Source: Escherichia coli (GTDB lineage: Bacteria > Pseudomonadota > Gammaproteobacteria > Enterobacterales > Enterobacteriaceae). Taken from it: a DNA stretch of 64,000 nt. The position numbers and the translations under genes are program-made. Positions within the stretch are counted from its first letter, which is position 1. Each line of letters opens with the position of its first letter. Under the pieces are notes generated by a model. That model saw nothing but the letters and a program-made list of their open reading frames with translations. It searched no databases and had not been told where the DNA came from. Of this stretch, positions 3,472-63,448 are shown in pieces. Location of the stretch: assembly GCF_003334405.1 (NCBI RefSeq), contig NZ_QOWM01000003.1; one strand, written 5' to 3'.

Positions 3472-4116
3472 ATGATGCAACCATCAATCAAACCTGCTGA
3501 CGAGCATTCAGCTGGCGATATCATTGCGCGCATCGGCAGCCTGACGCGTATGCTGCGCGACAGTTTGCGGGAACTGGGGCTGGATCAGGCCATTGCCGAA
3601 GCGGCGGAAGCCATCCCCGATGCGCGCGATCGTTTGTACTATGTTGTGCAGATGACCGCCCAGGCTGCGGAGCGGGCGCTGAACAGTGTTGAGGCGTCAC
3701 AACCGCATCAGGATCAAATGGAGAAATCAGCAAAAGCGTTAACCCAACGTTGGGATGACTGGTTTGCCGATCCGATTGACCTTGCCGACGCCCGTGAACT
3801 GGTAACAGATACACGACAATTTCTGGCAGATGTACCCGCGCATACCAGCTTTACTAACGCGCAACTGCTGGAAATCATGATGGCGCAGGATTTTCAGGAT
3901 CTCACCGGGCAGGTCATTAAGCGGATGATGGATGTCATTCAGGAGATCGAACGCCAGTTGCTGATGGTGCTGTTGGAAAACATCCCGGAACAGGAGTCGC
4001 GTCCAAAACGTGAAAACCAGAGTTTGCTTAATGGACCTCAGGTCGATACCAGCAAAGCCGGTGTGGTAGCCAGTCAGGATCAGGTGGACGATTTGTTGGA
4101 TAGTCTTGGATTTTGA
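3472..4116 (+). CDS. cheZ: CheY-P phosphatase CheZ (214 aa)
   Basis: ORF 3442..4116 contains [22 protein letters not shown]; start placed at the internal ATG at 3472 to give the expected 214 aa. Confidence 0.92.
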
Positions 4117-4124
4117 TTTGTATT

Positions 4125-4187
4125 GCCTGATGTGGCGTGACCACGTCATATCAGGCGGTCTGATAAGGCGATGACGCCGCATCCGAC
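4125..4187. repeat. REP-type extragenic palindromes (imperfect hairpin plus GCCGCATCCGAC-type REP)
   Basis: gcctgatgtggcgtgaccacgtcatatcaggc hairpin followed by gataaggcgatgacgccgcatccgac in the cheZ-flhB intergenic region. Confidence 0.6.
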
Positions 4188-4317
4188 AAACGCACACTAT
4201 GCTTGATGTGTGGCAGCAAAAGCCCTAAATCCCGCCTGTTTTGCCCCTTACTCAAACCATTGAACGCTTTGCGCTCTGGCATCATTCACGCTTAATACTC
4301 TTTCCAGGATTGGCGAC

Positions 4318-5466
4318 GTGTCTGACGAGAGCGACGACAAAACAGAAGCCCCCACACCTCACCGACTAGAAAAAGCGCGGGAAGAGGGGCAAATCCCGCG
4401 TTCCCGTGAACTGACCTCACTGCTGATTTTGCTGGTGGGCGTTAGTGTTATCTGGTTTGGCGGTGTGTCGCTGGCCCGTCGATTGTCGGGCATGCTCTCC
4501 GCTGGGCTGCATTTTGATCACAGTATTATCAATGACCCGAATCTGATCCTCGGGCAGATTATTCTGCTGATCAGAGAAGCCATGCTGGCGCTGCTGCCGC
4601 TGATTAGCGGCGTGGTGCTGGTGGCGCTCATTTCTCCGGTCATGCTGGGAGGGCTGGTATTTAGCGGCAAATCCTTGCAGCCGAAGTGTTCCAAACTCAA
4701 CCCGCTACCGGGCATTAAACGGATGTTCTCGGCTCAGACTGGCGCGGAGTTGCTTAAAGCAATTTTGAAAACCATCCTGGTTGGCAGCGTGACGGGGTTT
4801 TTTCTCTGGCATCACTGGCCGCAGATGATGCGCTTGATGGCCGAGTCTCCGATTACCGCCATGGGTAATGCGATGGATTTGGTAGGGCTATGCGCACTGC
4901 TGGTGGTGCTTGGTGTCATTCCAATGGTGGGATTTGACGTCTTTTTCCAAATATTCAGCCACCTGAAAAAGCTGCGTATGTCACGGCAGGATATTCGTGA
5001 TGAGTTCAAACAAAGCGAAGGTGACCCTCATGTTAAAGGGCGGATCCGTCAGATGCAGCGAGCTGCTGCACGGCGTCGGATGATGGCCGATGTGCCGAAA
5101 GCGGATGTCATTGTCAATAACCCGACCCACTATTCGGTAGCGTTGCAGTATGACGAAAACAAAATGAGCGCACCGAAAGTGGTCGCTAAAGGTGCAGGGC
5201 TGGTCGCGCTGCGCATTCGTGAAATTGGCGCTGAAAATAACGTCCCGACGCTTGAAGCGCCGCCGCTGGCGCGAGCGCTGTATCGACATGCGGAGATTGG
5301 TCAACAAATCCCGGGTCAACTGTACGCCGCGGTGGCGGAAGTGCTGGCCTGGGTCTGGCAACTGAAACGCTGGCGTCTGGCTGGTGGACAGCGCCCTGTA
5401 CAACCTACTCATCTTCCGGTGCCGGAAGCCCTGGATTTTATTAACGAGAAACCGACCCATGAGTAA
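4318..5466 (+). CDS. flhB: Flagellar biosynthesis protein FlhB (382 aa), apparent GTG start
   Basis: 382-aa ORF MSDESDDKTEAPTPHRLEKAREEGQIPRSRELTS with type III export-apparatus switch sequence; GTG at 4318. Confidence 0.95.
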   Translation: MSDESDDKTEAPTPHRLEKAREEGQIPRSRELTSLLILLVGVSVIWFGGVSLARRLSGMLSAGLHFDHSIINDPNLILGQIILLIREAMLALLPLISGVVLVALISPVMLGGLVFSGKSLQPKCSKLNPLPGIKRMFSAQTGAELLKAILKTILVGSVTGFFLWHHWPQMMRLMAESPITAMGNAMDLVGLCALLVVLGVIPMVGFDVFFQIFSHLKKLRMSRQDIRDEFKQSEGDPHVKGRIRQMQRAAARRRMMADVPKADVIVNNPTHYSVALQYDENKMSAPKVVAKGAGLVALRIREIGAENNVPTLEAPPLARALYRHAEIGQQIPGQLYAAVAEVLAWVWQLKRWRLAGGQRPVQPTHLPVPEALDFINEKPTHE

Positions 5467-11233: not shown

Positions 11234-12068
<835 letters not shown>

Positions 12069-12376: not shown

Positions 12377-13477
12377 ATGCGAGGGAAAAAACGCATTGGG
12401 TTATTGTTTTTGCTGATAGCGGTTGTGGTTGGTGGCGGCGGGTTATTGCTGGCGCAAAAAGCCTTACATAAAACGTCGGATACAGCATTTTGCCTTTCCT
12501 GCCACTCGATGAGTAAACCTTTTGAGGAATATCAGGGAACTGTCCACTTTTCGAACCAGAAAGGGATACGTGCGGAATGTGCCGATTGCCATATTCCAAA
12601 GTCAGGGATGGATTATTTATTTGCTAAATTAAAGGCATCTAAAGATATTTATCATGAATTTGTTAGCGGCAAAATAGACAGTGACGATAAGTTCGAAGCT
12701 CATCGCCAGGAAATGGCCGAAACAGTATGGAAAGAATTAAAAGCCACTGACTCTGCAACGTGCCGTAGTTGCCATTCTTTTGATGCCATGGATATTGCCT
12801 CGCAAAGTGAATCTGCGCAGAAAATGCATAACAAAGCACAAAAGGACAGCGAAACCTGTATCGATTGTCATAAAGGCATTGCCCATTTTCCGCCAGAAAT
12901 AAAAATGGATGACAACGCGGCGCATGAGCTGGAAAGTCAGGCCGCTACTTCAGTTACTAATGGCGCACATATTTATCCTTTCAAAACTTCTCACATAGGC
13001 GAGCTGGCTACCGTGAATCCTGGAACCGATCTCACCGTCGTTGATGCCAGTGGCAAACAGCCGATCGTTCTGTTGCAGGGTTATCAAATGCAGGGCAGTG
13101 AAAACACGCTCTACCTGGCGGCAGGTCAACGGCTGGCGCTAGCCACATTAAGTGAAGAAGGTATCAAGGCGCTCACTGTAAACGGGGAATGGCAGGCTGA
13201 CGAATACGGCAATCAATGGCGTCAGGCGTCTTTACAGGGTGCGCTTACCGATCCCGCATTAGCGGACCGTAAACCGCTATGGCAATACGCTGAAAAACTT
13301 GACGATACCTATTGCGCTGGTTGTCATGCCCCTATTGCCGCCGACCATTACACCGTCAATGCGTGGCCGTCCATTGCCAAAGGAATGGGGGCACGAACCA
13401 GCATGAGCGAAAACGAACTGGACATTTTAACGCGGTATTTCCAGTACAACGCCAAAGATATTACCGAGAAACAGTGA
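12377..13477 (+). CDS. torY: Pentahaem c-type cytochrome TorY (NapC/NirT family, 366 aa)
   Basis: 366-aa ORF with N-terminal TM helix and multiple CxxCH haem-binding motifs (CLSCH, CADCH, CRSCH, CIDCH, CAGCH). Confidence 0.93.
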
Positions 13478-13501
13478 TCCTCGTTGATCAGGGAGGAAGT
13501 T

Positions 13502-15931
13502 ATGACATTAACAAGACGTGAATTTATTAAACACAGCGGTATTGCCGCTGGAGCGCTGGTGGTGACATCGGCAGCACCGCTCCCCGCATGGGCAGAAGAG
13601 AAGGGCGGTAAAATCCTCACCGCGGGACGTTGGGGAGCGATGAACGTAGAAGTGAAGGACGGCAAGATTGTTTCTTCAACAGGCGCGCTGGCGAAAACCA
13701 TACCGAATTCCTTACAGTCTACGGCGGCGGATCAGGTACACACCACGGCGCGTATTCAGCATCCGATGGTGAGAAAAAGCTATCTCGATAATCCACTGCA
13801 ACCGGCGAAAGGTCGTGGCGAAGATACCTATGTACAGGTGAGCTGGGAACAGGCATTAAAACTGATTCATGAGCAACATGATCGTATTCGTAAAGCTAAC
13901 GGACCATCGGCCATTTTTGCCGGATCTTACGGCTGGCGCTCTTCTGGCGTGTTGCATAAAGCGCAAACCTTACTGCAACGTTATATGAACCTGGCGGGCG
14001 GTTATTCCGGGCATAGCGGCGATTATTCAACCGGGGCAGCACAGGTGATCATGCCGCATGTGGTCGGTTCTGTAGAGGTGTATGAACAGCAGACCTCCTG
14101 GCCGCTGATTCTGGAAAACAGCCAGGTTGTGGTGCTGTGGGGAATGAACCCGCTGAATACCTTAAAAATTGCCTGGAGCAGTACCGATGAGCAAGGGCTG
14201 GAATACTTCCATCAGCTGAAAAAATCTGGCAAACCAGTGATTGCCATTGATCCTATCCGCTCCGAAACCATCGAATTCTTTGACGATAATGCCACCTAGA
14301 TCGCGCCGAATATGGGCACCGACGTGGCACTGATGTTAGGGATTGCGCATACCCTGATGACACAAGGCAAACACGATAAAGTGTTCCTTGAAAAATACAC
14401 TACCGGGTATCCGCAGTTTGAAGAGTATCTGATAGGTAAGAGCGATAATACGCCGAAGAGCGCGGTCTGGGCGGCGGAAATTACTGGCGTACCGGAAGCG
14501 CAGATAGTCAAACTCGCTGAACTGATGGCGGCGAATCGCACAATGCTGATGGCAGGCTGGGGAATTCAGCGCCAGCAATATGGTGAACAGAAACACTGGA
14601 TGCTGGTGACGCTGGCGGCGATGTTAGGGCAGATTGGTACACCGGGCGGCGGTTTTGGTTTCTCTTATCATTACTCCAACGGTGGCAACCCGACGCGTGT
14701 TGGCGGCGTGCTGCCGGAAATGTCTGCGGCGATTGCCGGACATGCCAGCGAGGCCGCTGATGATGGCGGAATGACGGCGATTCCTGTTGCCCGTATCGTC
14801 GATGCGCTGGAAAATCCTGGCGGCAAATATCAGCATAACGGTAAAGAACAAACGTATCCGAATATCAAAATGATCTGGTGGGCGGGTGGCGGTAACTTTA
14901 CCCATCACCAGGATACTAATCGTCTGATTAAAGCATGGCAGAAACCGGAGATGATCGTCGTTTCTGAATGCTACTGGACCGCAGCAGCCAAACACGCAGA
15001 TATCGTATTACCGATCACCACATCGTTTGAGCGCAATGACTTGACGATGACCGGTGATTACAGCAACCAGCATATTGTGCCGATGAAGCAGGCTGTTGCT
15101 CCGCAATTTGAAGCGCGTAACGATTTTGACGTGTTTGCCGATCTTGCGGAATTACTCAAACCTGGCGGAAAAGAGATCTATACCGAAGGTAAAGATGAAA
15201 TGGCGTGGCTGAAATTTTTCTATGATGCCGCTCAGAAAGGTGCCCGTGCGCAACGCGTCACTATGCCAATGTTTAATGCCTTCTGGCAGCAAAATAAACT
15301 GATCGAAATGCGCCGCAGCGAGAAGAACGAACAGTACGTTCGTTATGGTGATTTCCGCGCCGATCCGGTGAAAAATGCGCTGGGTACGCCAAGCGGCAAA
15401 ATTGAAATCTATTCAAAAACGTTGGAAAAATTTGGCTATAAGGATTGCCCGGCACACCCAACCTGACTGGCTCCTGATGAATGGAAAGGTACCGCCGACG
15501 AGAAGCAGTTACAGCTTCTGACCGCACATCCGGCACACCGTTTACACAGTCAGCTTAACTATGCGGAACTGCGTAAAAAATATGCGATCGCCGATCGTGA
15601 ACCAATCACTATTCACACCGAAGATGCTGCACGCTTTGGTATTGCGAATGGCGATCTGGTGCGTGTCTGGAACAAACGTGGTCAGATTTTGACAGGCGCG
15701 GTGGTGACTGACGGGATCAAAAAAGGCGTGGTATGCGTGCATGAAGGTGCATGGCCAGATCTGGAAAATGGCTTGTGTAAAAACGGCAGTGCGAACGTGT
15801 TAACGGCGGATATCCCCAGCTCGCAGCTGGCAAATGCCTGTGCCGGTAACTCAGCGTTGGTGTATATCGAAAAATATACGGGCAATGCACCGAAGTTAAC
15901 GGCGTTTGATCAGCCAGCTGTTCAGGCGTAA
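13502..15931 (+). pseudogene. torZ: TMAO/N-oxide reductase TorZ (BisZ), full 809-codon frame interrupted by two in-frame stops (TAG 14297..14299, TGA 15464..15466)
   Basis: ORFs 13484..14299, 14312..15466 and 15659..15931 are all in the same frame and together give exactly 810 codons from ATG 13502 ([21 protein letters not shown], Tat signal) to the stop at 15931; translation across both stops is continuous molybdopterin-oxidoreductase sequence. Confidence 0.8.
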
Positions 15932-15983
15932 GACGTGAATAGCGCCCGGAAACGGGCGCTGAGGTTATGCAAACGTAAAGCTG

Positions 15984-16082
15984 CCTGATGCGCTATGCTT
16001 ATCAGGCCTACATAGTCCCTGCAATATATTGAATTAGCAAGGTTTTGTAGGCCGGATAAGGCGTTCACGCCGCATCCGGCAG
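15984..16082. repeat. REP elements (two copies) between torZ and cmoB
   Basis: gcctgatgcgctatgcttatcaggcctaca and gtaggccggataaggcgttcacgccgcatccggcag. Confidence 0.7.
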
Positions 16083-21876: not shown

Positions 21877-22329
21877 GTGAAGGATAAAGTGTATAAGCGT
21901 CCCGTTTCGATCTTAGTGGTCATCTACGCACAAGATACGAAACGGGTGCTGATGTTGCAGCGGCGTGACGATCCCGATTTCTGGCAGTCGGTAACCGGCA
22001 GCGTGGAAGAGGGTGAAACCGCGCCGCAAGCTGCCATGCGCGAAGTAAAGGAAGAGGTCACCATTGATGTTGTCGCTGAACAACTGACCTTAATTGACTG
22101 TCAGCGCACGGTAGAGTTTGAAATTTTTTCACATTTACGTCATCGCTATGCGCCGGGCGTGACGCGTAATACGGAATCATGGTTCTGTCTTGCGCTTCCG
22201 CACGAGCGGCAGATCGTTTTCACTGAACATCTGGCTTACAAGTGGCTTGATGCGCCTGCTGCGGCGGCGCTCACTAAGTCCTGGAGCAACCGGCAGGCGA
22301 TTGAACAGTTTGTAATTAACGCTGCCTGA
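21877..22329 (+). CDS. nudB: Dihydroneopterin triphosphate diphosphatase NudB (150 aa), apparent GTG start
   Basis: ORF 21820..22329; Nudix box [21 protein letters not shown]; start placed at GTG 21877 ([18 protein letters not shown]) for the expected 150 aa. Confidence 0.85.
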
Positions 22330-25149: not shown

Positions 25150-26163
<1,014 letters not shown>

Positions 26164-26290
26164 GTCGGATTGGTCGCTCGCGCCGCATCCGGCACTGGCA
26201 ATATGCCTGATGCGACGCTGTTCGCGTCTTACCAGGACTACCAGAGATACCGAACCGTAGGTCGGATAAGGCGCTCGCGCCGCATCCGAC
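26164..26290. repeat. BIME/REP cluster (three REP copies in alternating orientation)
   Basis: gtcggattggtcgctcgcgccgcatccggcac, gcctgatgcgacgctgttcgcgtcttaccagg, gtaggtcggataaggcgctcgcgccgcatccgac. Confidence 0.7.
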
Positions 26291-26309
26291 AAATGTGTTC
26301 AGCGATAGA

Positions 26310-27095
26310 TTAGCTGGCCTGCTTTTTCATCATACTGAGAATAAATAACAGTGCCGCACATAGCACCACCGACGGACCCGCCGGCGTATCGTAAACCGCG
26401 GAAAAGGTTAAACCGCCAGTCACTGCCACCATCCCCACCAAAACAGCGACACCAGCCATCTGTTCCGGCGTGCGGGCAAAGCGACGCGCAGTAGCAGCAG
26501 GAATAATCAGCAACGAAGTAATAATCAACGCACCGACAAATTTCATCGCTACACCAATCGTCAATGCCGTCACCAGCATCAACAACAATTTCACTCGCTG
26601 TAATTTCACACCATCAACAAACGCCAGATCCGGGCTTATCGTCATTGACAGCAAATTGCGCCATTGCCAGAACAAAATAGCCACCACGATGACCACGCCA
26701 ATCGCAATAGAGATGAGATCTTCTGGCGTCACTGCCAGCAAATCACCGAACAGGTAAGCCATCAAATCAACACGAATATTAGACATCAGACTCACGACCA
26801 CCAGGCCCAGCGACAGGGCACTGTGCGCCATAATCCCTAATAACGTGTCGATCGCCAGCTGTGGACGCTTCTCCAGCCATACCAGACCGCCCGCCAGCAG
26901 CAGCGTAACGGCAATCACCGCATAGAATGGATTCACGTCCAGCAACAAACCAAACGCGACGCCAAGTAATGAGGCATGAGCCAGCGTATCACCGAAATAA
27001 GACATACGACGCCAGACTACAAACGAACCCAGCGGACCCGCGGCACAGGCGAGCATGATCCCGGCTAACCAACCGGGAAATAATAATTCAATCAT
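26310..27095 (-). CDS. znuB: Zinc ABC transporter permease ZnuB (261 aa)
   Basis: 261-aa polytopic membrane [43 protein letters not shown]. Confidence 0.95.
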
Positions 27096-31287: not shown

Positions 31288-31376
31288 AAAAGCCTCTCGC
31301 GAGGAGAGGCCTTCGCCTGATGATAAGTTCAAGTTTGCTTCAGAATATTCGAAATCTGTTGAACTATCATTGAACT

Positions 31377-31413
31377 GTAGGCCGGATGTGGCGTTTTCGC
31401 CGCATCCGGCAAC
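31377..31413. repeat. REP element between lpxM and pykA
   Basis: gtaggccggatgtggcgttttcgccgcatccggcaac. Confidence 0.65.
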
Positions 31414-31417
31414 GTAC

Positions 31418-32860
31418 TTACTCTACCGTTAAAATACGCGTGGTATTAGTAGAACCCACGGTACTCATCACGTCGCCCTGGGTGACAATCACCAGGTCAC
31501 CAGACATCAAGTAACCTTTATCGCGCAGCAGATTAACCGCTTCGCTGGCAGCTGCTACGCCGTCATTAGCGCTATCAAAGTGCACCGGCGTAACGCCACG
31601 ATAGAGAGCAGTCAGGTTCAGCGTACGTTCATGGCGCGACATGGCGAAAATTGGCAGACCAGAGCTGATACGGGAGGTCATCAGCGCGGTACGACCCGAT
31701 TCGGTCATGGTGATGATCGCCGTAACGCCTTTCAGGTGGTTAGCTGCGTACATTGCTGACATGGCAATAGCTTCTTCCACATTGTCGAACTGAACGTCCA
31801 GACGGTGTTTAGAAACGTTGATGCTCGGGATTTTTTCCGCACCCAGGCAAACGCGCGCCATGGCTGCAACGGTTTCTGACGGATACTGCCCAGCGGCAGT
31901 TTCTGCAGACAGCATCACAGCGTCAGTACCATCCAGAACGGCGTTTGCTACGTCCATGACTTCTGCACGCGTCGGCATCGGGTTAGTAATCATTGACTCC
32001 ATCATCTGGGTCGCCGTGATTACCGCTCGGTTTAGCTGACGCGCACGACGGATCAACGCTTTCTGAATGCCGACCAGTTCCGGGTCGCCAATTTCCACAC
32101 CGAGGTCGCCACGTGCAACCATTACCACGTCAGAGGCGAGGATGATGTCATCCATTGCATCCTGGCTGCAAACGGCTTCCGCACGTTCAACCTTGGCAAC
32201 AATTTTCGCATCACATCCTGCATCGCGTGCCAGGCGACGGGCATAGTTCAGATCTTCGCCACAGCGTGGGAAGGAGACAGCCAGGTAATCTACGCCAATC
32301 AACGCCGCAGTCTTAATGTCTGCTTTGTCTTTTTCGGTCAGCGCTTCAGCCGACAAACCGCCGCCAAGTTTGTTGATACCTTTATTGTTGGAGAGGGGAC
32401 CACCGACGGTGACTTCGGTGAACACTTTCATGCCCTGAACTTCCAGTACTTTTAACTGGACGCGACCATCGTCCAGCAGCAGGATGTCACCAGGCACGAC
32501 GTCAGCAGGCAGGCCTTTGTAGTCGATACCGACTTTTTCTTTGTCGCCTTCACCTTTACCCAGGTTGGCGTCGAGCAGGAATTTATCCCCAATATTGAGG
32601 AAAACTTTGCCTTCTTTAAAGGTGGATACACGGATTTTGGGCCCCTGGAGGTCACCCAGAATAGCCACATGACGCCCCAGTTTTGCGGCAATCTCACGAA
32701 CTTTATCCGCGCGCATTTTGTGATCTTCAGGCGAGCCGTGAGAAAAGTTCATACGTACAACGTTGGCACCCGCCGCGATAACTTTTTCAAGATTATTATC
32801 GCGATCTGTTGCTGGGCCTAACGTGGTAACGATTTTTGTTCTGCGAAGCCTTCTGGACAT
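31418..32860 (-). CDS. pykA: Pyruvate kinase II PykA (480 aa)
   Basis: ORF 31418..33001; start placed at ATG 32860 ([27 protein letters not shown]) giving 480 aa. Confidence 0.95.
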
Positions 32861-38398: not shown

Positions 38399-38429
38399 CA
38401 AAATGCCCGATCGAGGATCGGGCATTTTT
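38399..38429. terminator. Bidirectional intrinsic terminator between convergent eda and purT
   Basis: aaaatgcccgatcgaggatcgggcattttt: hairpin flanked by an A-run and a T-run. Confidence 0.75.
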
Positions 38430-38449: not shown

Positions 38450-39628
38450 TTAACCCTGTACTTTTACCTGTCCGGCGGCGTGCTTCGCGCGTTCAATGGC
38501 GTCAACAACACTCTCTGCAGTAGCCAGTGCCACCCCCAGACGACGGCTGCCATCAATTTCCGGCTTACCAAATAAACGAATCTGCAAATCTGCGCCTACG
38601 GCATTCTGCACATTATCAAACGTGACATTCTGACTGGTCAGTTGTGGCAGAATAACGGCAGAAGCTGCAGGACCATACTGACGGATCCCGCCAACCGGAA
38701 GTCCGAGGAAGGCACGTACATGCAGGGCAAACTCTGAGAGATCTTGAGAAATTAACGTCACCATCCCGGTATCATGTGGACGAGGGGAGACCTCACTGAA
38801 AATCACCTCATCACCACAGACAAATAGCTCGACACCAAACAACCCATAACCGCCCAGTGCCAGCACCACTTTACGGGCAATCTCCTGCGCACGTTCAAGG
38901 GCAAGCGGGCTCATTTGCTGTGGTTGCCAGGATTCACGGTAGTCGCCATCTTCCTGGCGATGACCTACTGGTGCACAGAAATGGACGCCATCCACCGCGC
39001 TGACGGTTAGCAGGGTAATTTCGAAGTCAAACTTAACGACGCCTTCAACAATTACGCGGCCCGCTCCGGCGCGACCGCCTTGCTGAGCGTACTTCCATGC
39101 CTGAGCAAGTTGCTCTGCAGAACGAATAAACGTCTGCCCCTTGCCGGAAGAGCTCATCACCGGTTTTACAATGCAGGGATAGCCAATGTCAGCAACCGCC
39201 TCGCGGAAAAGGCTTTCGCTATCGGCAAAACGATAAGTGGAAGTGGGCAGCTGCAGCTCTTCTGCCGCCAGGCGACGGATACCCTCGCGATTCATCGTTA
39301 ATTTCGTTGCGCGAGCGCAGGGGACAACATTCAGTCCTTCCTCTTCAAGTTGGATCAGCATATCGGTGGCAATAGCTTCGATCTCCGGCACGATATAATG
39401 TGGTTTTTCCAGTTCAACCACACGGCGTAATGCATCACCATCAAGCATATTAATGACATGGGAGCGATGCGCGACATGCATGGCTGGTGCGTCGGCATAG
39501 CGATCGACGGCAATCACCTCTACGCCGAGACGCTGACACTCGATTGCCACTTCTTTACCCAGTTCACCGGAGCCTAATAACATCACGCGAGTTGCTGCCG
39601 GACGCAGCGCAGTGCCTAATAACGTCAT
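38450..39628 (-). CDS. purT: Formate-dependent phosphoribosylglycinamide formyltransferase PurT (392 aa)
   Basis: 392-aa [45 protein letters not shown]; ATP-grasp. Confidence 0.95.
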
Positions 39629-40475: not shown

Positions 40476-40502
40476 TGGCTTCTGATAATTCGATTGACTG
40501 TT

Positions 40503-40588
40503 GGCGGATGCGGCGCGAGTGCCTTGTCCGCCCCAGAACGCACCACAATCGTAGGCCTGAGAAGACGCAACAGCGTCGCATCGGGCAA
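40503..40588. repeat. REP-like palindromic repeats between yebF and yebE
   Basis: ggcggatgcggcgcgagtgccttgtccgcc and gtaggcctgagaagacgcaacagcgtcgcatcgggc. Confidence 0.5.
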
Positions 40589-47215: not shown

Positions 47216-47440
47216 AACATTTCAGCTGATGACCACCACGCTTTTTATTGACCATTTTGCACGCAAACTGGAAAACCTGGCGTCGTCATCTATTCTTAAA
47301 GGGCAAGGCAACTAAGCCTGCATTAATGCCAACTTTTAGCGCACGGCTCTCTCCCAAGAGCCATTTCCCTGGACCGAATACAGGAATCGTGTTCGGTCTC
47401 TTTTTATCTGTTAAAAGCCAGAAGCATTTCCTTCGCTGAC
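47172..47440 (-). ncRNA. ryeA: Antisense sRNA RyeA (SraC) overlapping sdsR; boundaries uncertain
   Basis: Established knowledge that RyeA is transcribed opposite to and fully overlaps SdsR in this intergenic region; boundaries inferred from the bidirectional terminator at 47171..47215. Confidence 0.35.
47303..47405 (+). ncRNA. sdsR: sRNA SdsR (RyeB), RpoS-dependent Hfq-binding sRNA; ends approximate
   Basis: gcaaggcaactaagcctgcattaatgccaacttttagcgcacggctctctcccaagagccatttccctggaccgaatacaggaatcgtgttcggtctcttttt matches the SdsR sequence as I recall it, including the terminal hairpin plus U-run; yebY-pphA intergenic location. Confidence 0.6.
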
Positions 47441-62248: not shown

Positions 62249-62917
62249 TCCTTCCTCAATCTTGAGTAACCCCGTCGTTGAAGGGTTACTCAATTCATCC
62301 TGATTATACGCACTGTCATGGTGCAACTGCTTCAAATTAAAACTCTGGTCTGACTTCAAATAATTATCATATTATTTATTTGCGTAACGGGATATCAGAA
62401 AAAGATATTTACCCCATTAATTTATTAGGATGTTTACATCGGATTTGTGATTAAGCGTGGTATTATTTATTAGCGAAACGTTTCTCTCTTGATTTTTTTG
62501 CTCATTCATCAATTTTTCTTATTTTAAATTTACAATCCCTTTGGGGATTGACTTCTCTTTAGGGTAATTAATAGCCGTTAACTGACTGTTTTATGAGAAA
62601 AAGTGATATAACTTTTTATTCATTGCATAGCAAAAAATGTGATATTGCACGCACTATGTAATAACTTCTCCCACTGGCCTGGAACAACTGAACTTATTGA
62701 ACTATGTTAGAAAATACGCCAGTTTAAGTATCTGCCTGAACTGGCAAGGTTAAGCACAATGATATATCGGCGCGTATTCCGTTGCATAAGTGTGCAAAAA
62801 AAGTGGAAGACGTATCGAGATTTGTGCGTCTGATCGAGACATGTTTAAAAATGGCTTGCCATAATTAACGTTGTATGTGATAACAGATTTCGGGTTAAAC
62901 GAGGTACAGTTCTGTTT

Positions 62918-63061
62918 ATGTGTGGCATTTTCAGTAAAGAAGTCCTGAGTAAACACGTTGACGTTGAATACCGCTTCTCTGCCGAGCCTTATATTGGTGC
63001 CTCATGCAGTAATGTGTCAGTTTTATCTATGTTATGCCTGCGGGCGAAGAAAACAATCTAA
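62918..63061 (+). CDS. yobF: Small protein YobF (47 aa), co-transcribed with cspC; not in the ORF track
   Basis: Manual translation from ATG 62918: [47 protein letters not shown] then TAA, 12 nt upstream of cspC. Confidence 0.85.
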
Positions 63062-63073
63062 GGAATTTTTCAA

Positions 63074-63283
63074 ATGGCAAAGATTAAAGGTCAGGTTAAG
63101 TGGTTCAACGAGTCTAAAGGTTTTGGCTTCATTACTCCGGCTGATGGCAGCAAAGATGTGTTCGTACACTTCTCCGCTATCCAGGGTAATGGCTTCAAAA
63201 CTCTGGCTGAAGGTCAGAACGTTGAGTTCGAAATTCAGGACGGCCAGAAAGGTCCGGCAGCTGTTAACGTAACAGCTATCTGA
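63074..63283 (+). CDS. cspC: Cold-shock-domain protein CspC (69 aa)
   Basis: 69-aa [72 protein letters not shown]. Confidence 0.97.
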
Positions 63284-63328
63284 TCGAATCCACTGATCTG
63301 AAGTGTGAATACGCTTCAATCTCGCTAT

Positions 63329-63355
63329 AAAGCCTCGTCGAATGCGAGGCTTTTT
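63329..63355 (+). terminator. Intrinsic terminator after cspC
   Basis: aaagcctcg-tcgaatg-cgaggc followed by ttttt. Confidence 0.75.
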
Positions 63356-63448
63356 ACTATGCTTTATCTTCGCTCCTGGCGTTCGGATATTTGCCCGCCG
63401 CGTGATTCGCGTTACACTTGCGGCCTTTAGTATCCTGCCGGAGTTGTC

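Follow-up and report, generated by a model that had tools for sequence, protein, structure and literature searches.

Between the convergent genes ruvB and znuB of Escherichia coli lies a short array of GC-rich palindromes, and the question raised by this locus is what kind of element the array represents and what it may do for the genes that end on either side of it. REP/BIME elements were already familiar in the 1980s, and the name BIME-2 denotes the bacterial interspersed mosaic element of type 2 (Gilson, Bachellier and Hofnung; Espeli & Boccard). The array was analysed in a window of 64,000 nucleotides, by which is meant the whole stretch of DNA under consideration. With a probability of roughly 0.85, positions 26160-26291 of this window are a canonical BIME-2, made up of alternating y, z2 and y units, that fills the gap between ruvAB and znuCB and for which several roles can be proposed.

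The window as a whole corresponds to the reverse strand of E. coli K-12 MG1655 (NC_000913.3) from 1,906,509 to 1,970,508, except for 11 substitutions and with no indels, and a window position p is converted into an MG1655 coordinate as 1,970,509 - p. None of the substitutions is located inside any REP cluster, and the ruvB-znuB gap has an identical sequence in the window and in K-12. Because of these 11 differences, the source of the window appears, judging from its sequence, to be a close relative of K-12 and not MG1655 itself. The substitutions are found at 4688, 11636, 12462, 14298, 14433, 15315, 15466, 22537, 29767, 40228 and 45089, with five of the 11 accumulating in torY-torZ (12462-15466). 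Furthermore, Rfam recovered known RNA elements at their annotated positions, namely MicL inside cutC (11761-12068), the SraC/RyeA-SdsR/RyeB antisense pair (47265-47409) and the cspA-type thermoregulator 5' of yobF-cspC (62898-63358).

The earlier note had named a REP/BIME consensus search across the window as the check on its reading, and the outcome of this search is clear. At two mismatches or fewer, the motif GCCGGATGCGGCG, taken from the earlier note, occurs 13 times in the window against 2.66 occurrences expected, a number reached by 0 of 100 shuffles. All but two of the matches (11/13) fall within the five clusters previously named at ruvB, cheZ, torZ, lpxM and yebF; the other two, at 22254 in nudB and at 39597 in purT, do not exceed chance and lack a palindromic partner. 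An nhmmer profile leads to exactly ten REP units across the window (E <= 1.6e-4), grouped in five clusters at 4124-4188, 15982-16081, 26160-26291, 31377-31411 and 40502-40587, which recovers every one of the named sites and adds none. The next match that nhmmer gives in the window has an E-value of 0.72, and it therefore seems that no REP has been missed; opposite-strand echoes of the same ten palindromes appear at E-values of 0.01 and 0.037. As the profile was built from the window's own units, each unit was also typed independently against the published y, z1 and z2 consensus sequences, with matches ranging from 26/35 to 34/35 for the seven units outside the ruvB array. The K-12 RefSeq annotation does not contain REP features, and a published REP/BIME table was used as a check instead. 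The description of these sequences as standard enterobacterial extragenic palindromes is thus supported by motif, profile, consensus typing and published table alike. An 18-bp "REP" of the published K-12 table, located between eda and purT (38405-38423), was rejected, as it has no match to the REP profile. This stretch (AAAATGCCCGATCGAGGATCGGGCATTTTTG) consists of a GC hairpin between an A run and a T run, and it looks like a bidirectional intrinsic terminator.

REPs are imperfect palindromes of 30-40 nt, and their hairpin is conserved among the copies. When 15 units are aligned, of which ten belong to the window and five to the arrays of BL21 and O157, 92.7% of the stem cells are paired, against 34-48% when the partner is slid along. 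Compensatory changes are found at three stem positions (C-G/U-A, G-C/U-A and G-C/A-U; 14 cells), and the observed pairing or covariation is reached by 0 of 500 shuffles. Single units fold with energies of -9.6 to -28 kcal/mol and with z-scores of -2.6 to -6.7, the only exception being the degenerate first unit of the ruvB array (-0.9). In the predicted folds of most y units, the column with the C/T mismatch, which separates the two stem segments, stays unpaired; an exception to this internal mismatch or bulge is one of the cheZ units (cheZ_a), which is a perfect palindrome. The CTAC tail of the GTAG/CTAC foot is present in six of the ten window units, including the z2 unit and the third, y-type unit of the ruvB array. 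It is absent from both cheZ units and from one of the yebF units (yebF_a), and the first ruvB unit has TTAC instead.

In the gap itself, ruvB (25153-26163, + strand) and znuB (26310-27095, - strand) converge and leave 146 nt between them. The interval 26140-26310 runs from the end of ruvB, ...ATGCCGTAA, through three GC-rich palindromes to the place where znuB, encoded on the other strand, ends. The three REPs that had been described after ruvB, in alternating orientation, are confirmed at 26160-26194 (-), 26204-26241 (+) and 26257-26291 (-). The first is a y-type unit that matches the y consensus at 27/35 positions (nhmmer E = 1.7e-7). It is degenerate and forms a weak hairpin (-9.6 / -14.4 kcal/mol, z = -0.9); its tail on the + strand is GTAA in place of GTAG and includes the TAA stop codon of ruvB (26161-26163), the end of the gene and the foot of the REP overlapping by 4 nt. 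Around this stop codon (26158-26163) the foot reads CCGTAAG, and the third unit has CCGTAGG; a canonical GTAG at this place would equally supply an in-frame stop (TAG) for ruvB. A head-to-head linker of 9 nt, CTGGCAATA (26195-26203), leads to the central unit, and the O157 and BL21 copies carry TTGGCAGTG at the position of this linker. The central unit is of the z2 type (33/36 to the z2 consensus), with an exact z2-type head GCCTGATGCGACGC at 26205 and a tail ACCAGGACTAC that has two mismatches to the IS621 target ATCAGGCCTAC. A tail-to-tail linker of 15 nt, CAGAGATACCGAACC (26242-26256), follows, which is conserved in all repeats of the O157 and BL21 arrays. The third unit is again y-type (30/35; nhmmer E = 1.4e-9), has an intact GTAG (26257-26260, + strand), folds at -19.2 kcal/mol (z = -4.3) and lies 18 nt from the stop codon of znuB (26310-26312, - strand). 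The first y unit and 26255-26291 form a direct repeat of 37 nt with 86% identity. Folded as a whole, the array is more stable than shuffles on the znuB-sense strand (-72.2 kcal/mol, z = -4.6) and only marginally so on the ruvB-sense strand (-62.5 kcal/mol, z = -1.8). A search of the ruvB-znuB gap for other terminator-like or promoter-like sites found none, and Tandem Repeats Finder gave no result on the window copy, in which only about 1.4 periods are present.

This layout, y(-), a 9-nt linker, z2(+), a 15-nt linker and y(-), is that of a BIME-2 in the definitions of BIME-1 and BIME-2 given by Ton-Hoang et al. Compared with the y and z2 consensus sequences, the units match, and the assignment to BIME-2 stands; at the level of sequence, the array has every feature of this class and lacks those of a BIME-1 or a CRISPR. 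It differs from a typical BIME-2 in nothing essential: the K-12 array is short (1.5 periods), and its first y unit is degenerate, with GTAA for GTAG, and overlaps the ruvB stop codon. In the published table of Sutormin et al. the interval is listed as "BIMEs2 1947056-1947182, 126 bp, znuB>-<ruvB" in W3110 coordinates, which equal MG1655 coordinates plus 2,837. The span of 26164-26290 that had been given earlier for the array is equal to this 126-bp interval. The element between ruvB and znuB is therefore already catalogued, together with published gyrase-cleavage data, and nothing about its existence is new.

Among the named systems, REP325 / naRNA4 (Rfam RF02564), a BIME-2 of twelve hairpins between yjdM and yjdN, shares with the ruvB array the two-hairpin unit of y, linker and z2. 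The Rfam model of naRNA4 aligns over its full length (model positions 1-77) to 26163-26238 (+), with 43.5 bits and E = 8.3e-7. This score is below the gathering threshold of 59.5, and the ruvB array is therefore not called as a member of RF02564. Moreover, REP325 has twelve hairpins in a tandem setting, whereas the ruvB array has three in a convergent one.

The published Topo-seq data of Sutormin et al. give the numbers of gyrase sites under Cfx (ciprofloxacin), Rif+Cfx, microcin B17 and oxolinic acid, respectively. For the ruvB|znuB element (BIMEs2, 126 bp) these are 2, 2, 0 and 2, and the ruvB|znuB BIME is thereby documented as a site of DNA gyrase cleavage in vivo. The cheZ cluster (BIMEs2, 62 bp) has 2, 0, 0 and 0, its cleavage being documented under ciprofloxacin only, while no site is recorded under any of the four treatments for yebF (BIMEs2, 83 bp; 0, 0, 0, 0), pykA (BIMEs2, 29 bp; 0, 0, 0, 0) and torZ (BIMEs1, 97 bp; 0, 0, 0, 0). 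The earlier suggestion of gyrase binding is thus backed by recorded cleavage at two of the clusters, with this restriction for cheZ, and by none at the other three. Genome-wide, Sutormin et al. found gyrase cleavage to be enriched in BIME-2s, with a preference for y units, and not to be reduced there by rifampicin.

The locus is also variable among strains. The ruvB-znuB locus is present in all 5,426 complete E. coli genomes, and a query consisting of the flanks only finds the gap uninterrupted, with the ends of ruvB and znuB close enough to be linked, in 4,790 of these. The gap lengths were taken from 60 genomes sampled across the set, of which 44 have a gap of 144-151 nt with three REPs, four a gap of 245 nt with five REPs, three a gap of 340 nt with seven REPs and two a gap of 216 nt, and in seven the gap is split. 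Absence of the array was looked for in these 60 genomes and was observed in none, the smallest uninterrupted gap being 144 nt. K-12, O157:H7 and BL21 represent the forms with three, five and seven REPs (gaps of 146, 245 and 340 nt). The longer arrays are clean repeats of a period of 97-99 nt, [y, linker, z2, linker], and for BL21 Tandem Repeats Finder reports a 97-nt period in 3.4 copies with 90% matches. The array is thus shown to be fixed but length-polymorphic, expanding and contracting in place.

Insertion sequences make further use of the site. IS1397 is present at the ruvB-znuB junction in 555 of the 5,426 genomes and IS621, a bridge-RNA recombinase, in 71; together, 626 genomes (about 12%) hold an IS of 1.3-1.5 kb inside the array, and the intact structure of the array is therefore dispensable. 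IS1397 is inserted in the loop of a z2 unit (GACGCTGT|IS|TGTTCG), and IS621 in a z2 tail (ATCCGGCCT|IS|AC), a site that has one mismatch to the natural target ATCAGGCCTAC, the core of which is CT. The targeting of REPs by both elements has been described previously, and both insertion points agree with the published targets. These data show the ruvB array to be a natural landing site for the REP-specific elements IS1397 and IS621. The window copy is free of IS sequence. The earlier note saw no resemblance to a mobile element in any of the clusters, which oversimplifies matters for an array that exists with three, five or seven REPs and is a target of IS621 and IS1397.

In arrays of other strains at the same locus, a relic of the left end of IS621, about 57-66 nt long and inverted, is located inside the last y REP (L008:392-465 and L007 about 3927-4000, both outside the window), and a second copy of the REP tail comes after it. 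The relic breaks where the left end of IS621 has a REP-tail-like stretch, GCCGTATCGGGCCT. The fragment occurs alone, at one place each, in 564 genomes, many of them ST131. This single location per genome indicates a clonal scar at one locus and not a dispersed mini-element.

With respect to the origin of the array, Ton-Hoang et al. showed in vitro that TnpA_REP can cleave BIMEs and recombine them, and also that BIME copy number varies among strains, and in the literature REP/BIMEs are treated as non-autonomous substrates of the RAYT/TnpA_REP transposase. The origin of the ruvB array and its changes in length might therefore be ascribed to the action of TnpA_REP (RAYT) or to unequal recombination between units. 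Binding of TnpA_REP requires GTAG (Ton-Hoang et al.), and the GTAA of the first ruvB REP counts against an origin through this enzyme. The 70 features annotated in the window were searched for a RAYT (tnpA_REP) gene, and none was found; the K-12 RAYT gene, yafM, is located elsewhere in the genome, where it is flanked by BIME-2s. The missing local RAYT gene is to be expected, as it is what dispersed REP copies predict. A comparison can be made with the REPINs or RAYT-associated REP doublets of Pseudomonas and others, which are likewise inverted REP doublets, clustered and variable in copy number, and which are regarded as non-autonomous, depending on a Y1 transposase that is present in a single copy. 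However, their sequence families are unlike the REPs of E. coli, and the ruvB array displays only expansion and contraction in place.

It could be imagined, along these lines, that the array is nothing but a selfish or neutral, REPIN-like repeat dispersed by RAYT, without any function for the host, and that gyrase cleavage and hairpins are by-products. The variable number of REPs, the toleration of IS insertions in 626 of 5,426 genomes, the action of TnpA_REP on BIMEs in vitro and the apparent decay of the first unit (27/35, a GTAA tail, z = -0.9) would all fit such a view, as would the lack of a genome-wide effect of REPs on mRNA half-life. On the other hand, the array is present in all 60 sampled genomes, compensatory changes preserve the pairing of the stems, and the gyrase sites of BIME-2s are enriched and independent of transcription. 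The absence of any host function is therefore a possibility to be kept in mind, but a rather unlikely one, and a BIME-2 with roles at the ends of ruvAB and znuCB remains the preferred reading.

Which roles these might be is suggested by data on transcription. Supplementary file 2 of Adams et al. 2021 contains a Rho-termination peak on the ruvB-sense (+) strand at 26932 (MG1655 1943577), antisense within znuB, with a Rho score of 5.86 (p = 2.6e-7). The distance from the array to this downstream region is about 640 nt, and analogous regions occur beyond the pykA-side REP (at about 31622 of the window) and beyond the yebF pair (at about 40767). The region near 31622 is on the lpxM-sense strand, inside pykA. 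Transcription in the ruvAB sense is thus shown to pass through the array and to be ended by Rho some 640 nt further on, and the RNA role of the array is therefore likely to be that of a 3' hairpin barrier or attenuator and not that of a terminator. Peters et al. proposed, and the genome-wide data of Dar & Sorek support, a model in which Rho ends transcription further downstream and the transcript is then trimmed back as far as the REP. Furthermore, this model has been demonstrated for REP325, a stabiliser of the upstream mRNA as well as a partial, Rho-dependent attenuator of read-through. At the ruvB locus, once Rho has ended transcription downstream, 3'-5' exonucleases would trim the transcripts back to the REP hairpins, which, transcribed from either side, would define and protect the 3' end of each mRNA and might also reduce, in part, the read-through that enters the opposing gene. 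A stable mRNA 3' end at the ruvB BIME was looked for in the tables of 3' ends of Adams et al. and not found, as these have no entry for ruvB and no sense entry for znuB, pykA and cheZ. According to a 2026 preprint, convergent pairs with a REP are more highly expressed, but genes with a terminal REP do not have longer half-lives genome-wide, and a role as stabiliser therefore seems to depend on context.

A different view of the same gap would be that the BIME is mainly a bidirectional terminator, which ends the ruvAB and znuCB transcripts within it. The array is indeed the only structured element between the two convergent operons, the 2026 preprint counts 78 REPs that fall within bidirectional terminators predicted by it and reports that REP325 attenuates in part, and attenuation associated with BIMEs is described by Espeli et al. 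2001, as cited by Dar & Sorek. Intrinsic (Rho-independent) terminators similarly are GC-rich hairpins at the 3' end of genes that block 3' exonucleases. The ruvB array differs from them in that it has no U tract, not one of its hairpins being followed by a T/U run, and in that read-through continues to the downstream Rho-dependent region. This region, which is significant and lies about 640 nt past the array, is preceded by reads in cells without treatment, and this implies that a measurable share of the transcripts passes through, and the same pattern is seen at the pykA and yebF sites. An intrinsic terminator inside the ruvB-znuB gap was looked for and not found. A terminator as the main function is therefore unlikely.

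An effect on translation could be added to these roles. Liang et al. 2015 are reported to have found that REPs at less than 16 nt from a stop codon lower translation, and the distances from stop codon to REP are -4 nt for ruvB, 6 nt for pykA, 7 nt for cheZ and 14 nt for cmoB, all below this limit. As the first REP starts at the stop codon of ruvB, it probably dampens the translation of ruvB by stalling terminating ribosomes. The REP nearest to this stop is, however, the weakest hairpin, and the array as a whole differs little from shuffles on the ruvB-sense strand (z = -1.8); the effect may therefore be small. A more far-reaching proposal is that the states with three, five or seven REPs or with IS1397 or IS621, in combination with the REP at the stop codon, constitute a natural dial on the dosage of RuvB (and ZnuB), which would act through ribosome stalling at the stop, protection of the 3' end and antisense read-through. 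This is a speculative and quite improbable extension. If it were true, ST131-like lineages, with IS1397 and the IS621 relic, would differ heritably in the expression of the Holliday-junction helicase or of zinc uptake, and this difference would arise without any change in coding or promoter sequence.

The other clusters of the window demonstrate that REPs come in different assemblies, the five clusters being of four different kinds. Between cheZ and flhB lies an atypical pair of REPs, 4124-4158 (+) and 4157-4188 (-), arranged tail to tail with an overlap of 2 nt and without CTAC tail, which begins 7 nt past the cheZ stop. Between yebF and yebE, a degenerate y unit (40502-40536, +; 26/35) and a z2 unit (40551-40587, -; 32/36) form a pair of the BIME-2 type in a single copy, with a tail-to-tail linker of 14 nt, which starts 26 nt past the yebF stop. 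The unit formerly assigned to lpxM is a genuine single y REP (31377-31411, -; 32/35 to the y consensus; -23.8 / -28.4 kcal/mol, z = -6.7), but its place is in the 3' UTR of pykA, since it is 6 nt from the pykA stop, against 89 nt from that of lpxM, and is followed, in the direction of pykA transcription, by a terminator-like hairpin (31314-31288). That hairpin (31288-31314, -) has a T run on the pykA strand and abuts the lpxM stop codon; read on the lpxM strand, it has an A run before it and no T tail.

The fourth kind is found between torZ and cmoB, at a distance of 14 nt from the stop codon of cmoB and of 50 nt from that of torZ. It is a BIME-1 consisting of a z1 REP (15982-16011, +; 28/29 to the z1 consensus), an L linker of 35 nt (16012-16046) and a y REP (16047-16081, -; 34/35 to the y consensus). 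Within the linker an IHF-type site is present (16022-16034, -) that agrees with the pattern WATCAANNNNTTR at 12 of 13 positions, and according to Ton-Hoang et al. BIME-1s bind IHF by means of the L linker. Across the window this pattern is not enriched (63 matches against 56.6 expected), and the IHF-type site at torZ therefore rests on its BIME-1 context and not on motif counts. In the other four clusters no match to WATCAANNNNTTR was found with one mismatch or fewer. Binding of IHF, which had been proposed for the REP clusters in general, is thus plausible only for the torZ|cmoB cluster, as a prediction from linker and motif. Rfam gives a match above the gathering score to the family ES036/CssrF (RF02751) at 16004-16046 (-). 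What is matched is no more than the L linker of the torZ|cmoB BIME-1 together with its GTAGGCCT tail; the "sRNA family" is therefore part of a repeated BIME-1, of which it should match many copies.

The idea that the ruvB array itself is an IHF-binding element of the RIP/RIB (BIME-1) kind goes back to the earlier proposal of IHF binding and to the known use of the L linker by BIME-1s. It is very improbable. RIP, RIB and BIME-1 elements resemble the torZ|cmoB cluster, with z1, a linker of about 35 nt containing an IHF-type site, and y, in a single copy of about 97-100 bp. In the ruvB array the central unit is z2 (33/36) and not z1, the linkers are short (9 and 15 nt) and not the L motif of about 35 nt, and there is no match to WATCAANNNNTTR with one mismatch or fewer within 26160-26291. 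The published table files the array as BIME-2, and only torZ|cmoB fits BIME-1. With neither L linker nor motif present, binding of IHF at the ruvB array was rejected.

Short, regularly spaced and partly palindromic repeats could also suggest a CRISPR array of small size, the remnant of a MITE or IS, or a set of chance palindromes. Each of these can be dismissed as next to impossible, for successive repeats have opposite orientations, the "spacers" of the longer arrays recur in each period instead of being unique, the annotation of the window includes neither cas nor transposase genes, the window copy contains no IS sequence, and the units match a genome-wide family with a consensus far above chance, in agreement with the earlier statement that this is not a CRISPR.

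Finally, the distribution of the clusters bears on the claim that they mark operon boundaries. Of the gaps between genes in the window, REP clusters occupy 3 of the 11 that are convergent, 2 of the 44 that are tandem and none of the 11 that are divergent. The 2026 preprint reports a genome-wide split of about 60%, 40% and 1%, respectively, with about 30% of convergent gaps occupied, and the placement in the window matches this published split. The claim is correct insofar as all five clusters are located downstream of gene ends, but most operon ends have no REP. Neither are the REPs points of termination, as Rho-termination regions are found 180-640 nt beyond three of the five clusters.

The value of these observations lies in the clean-up of annotation, and as a discovery they matter little. 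A single functional label, be it IHF, gyrase or mRNA stabiliser, is not suited to all five clusters, and REPs flag 3' ends, not the points at which transcription terminates. The array between ruvB and znuB is, furthermore, a handy natural case in which the copy-number polymorphism of BIMEs and the targeting of REPs by IS1397 and IS621 come together.
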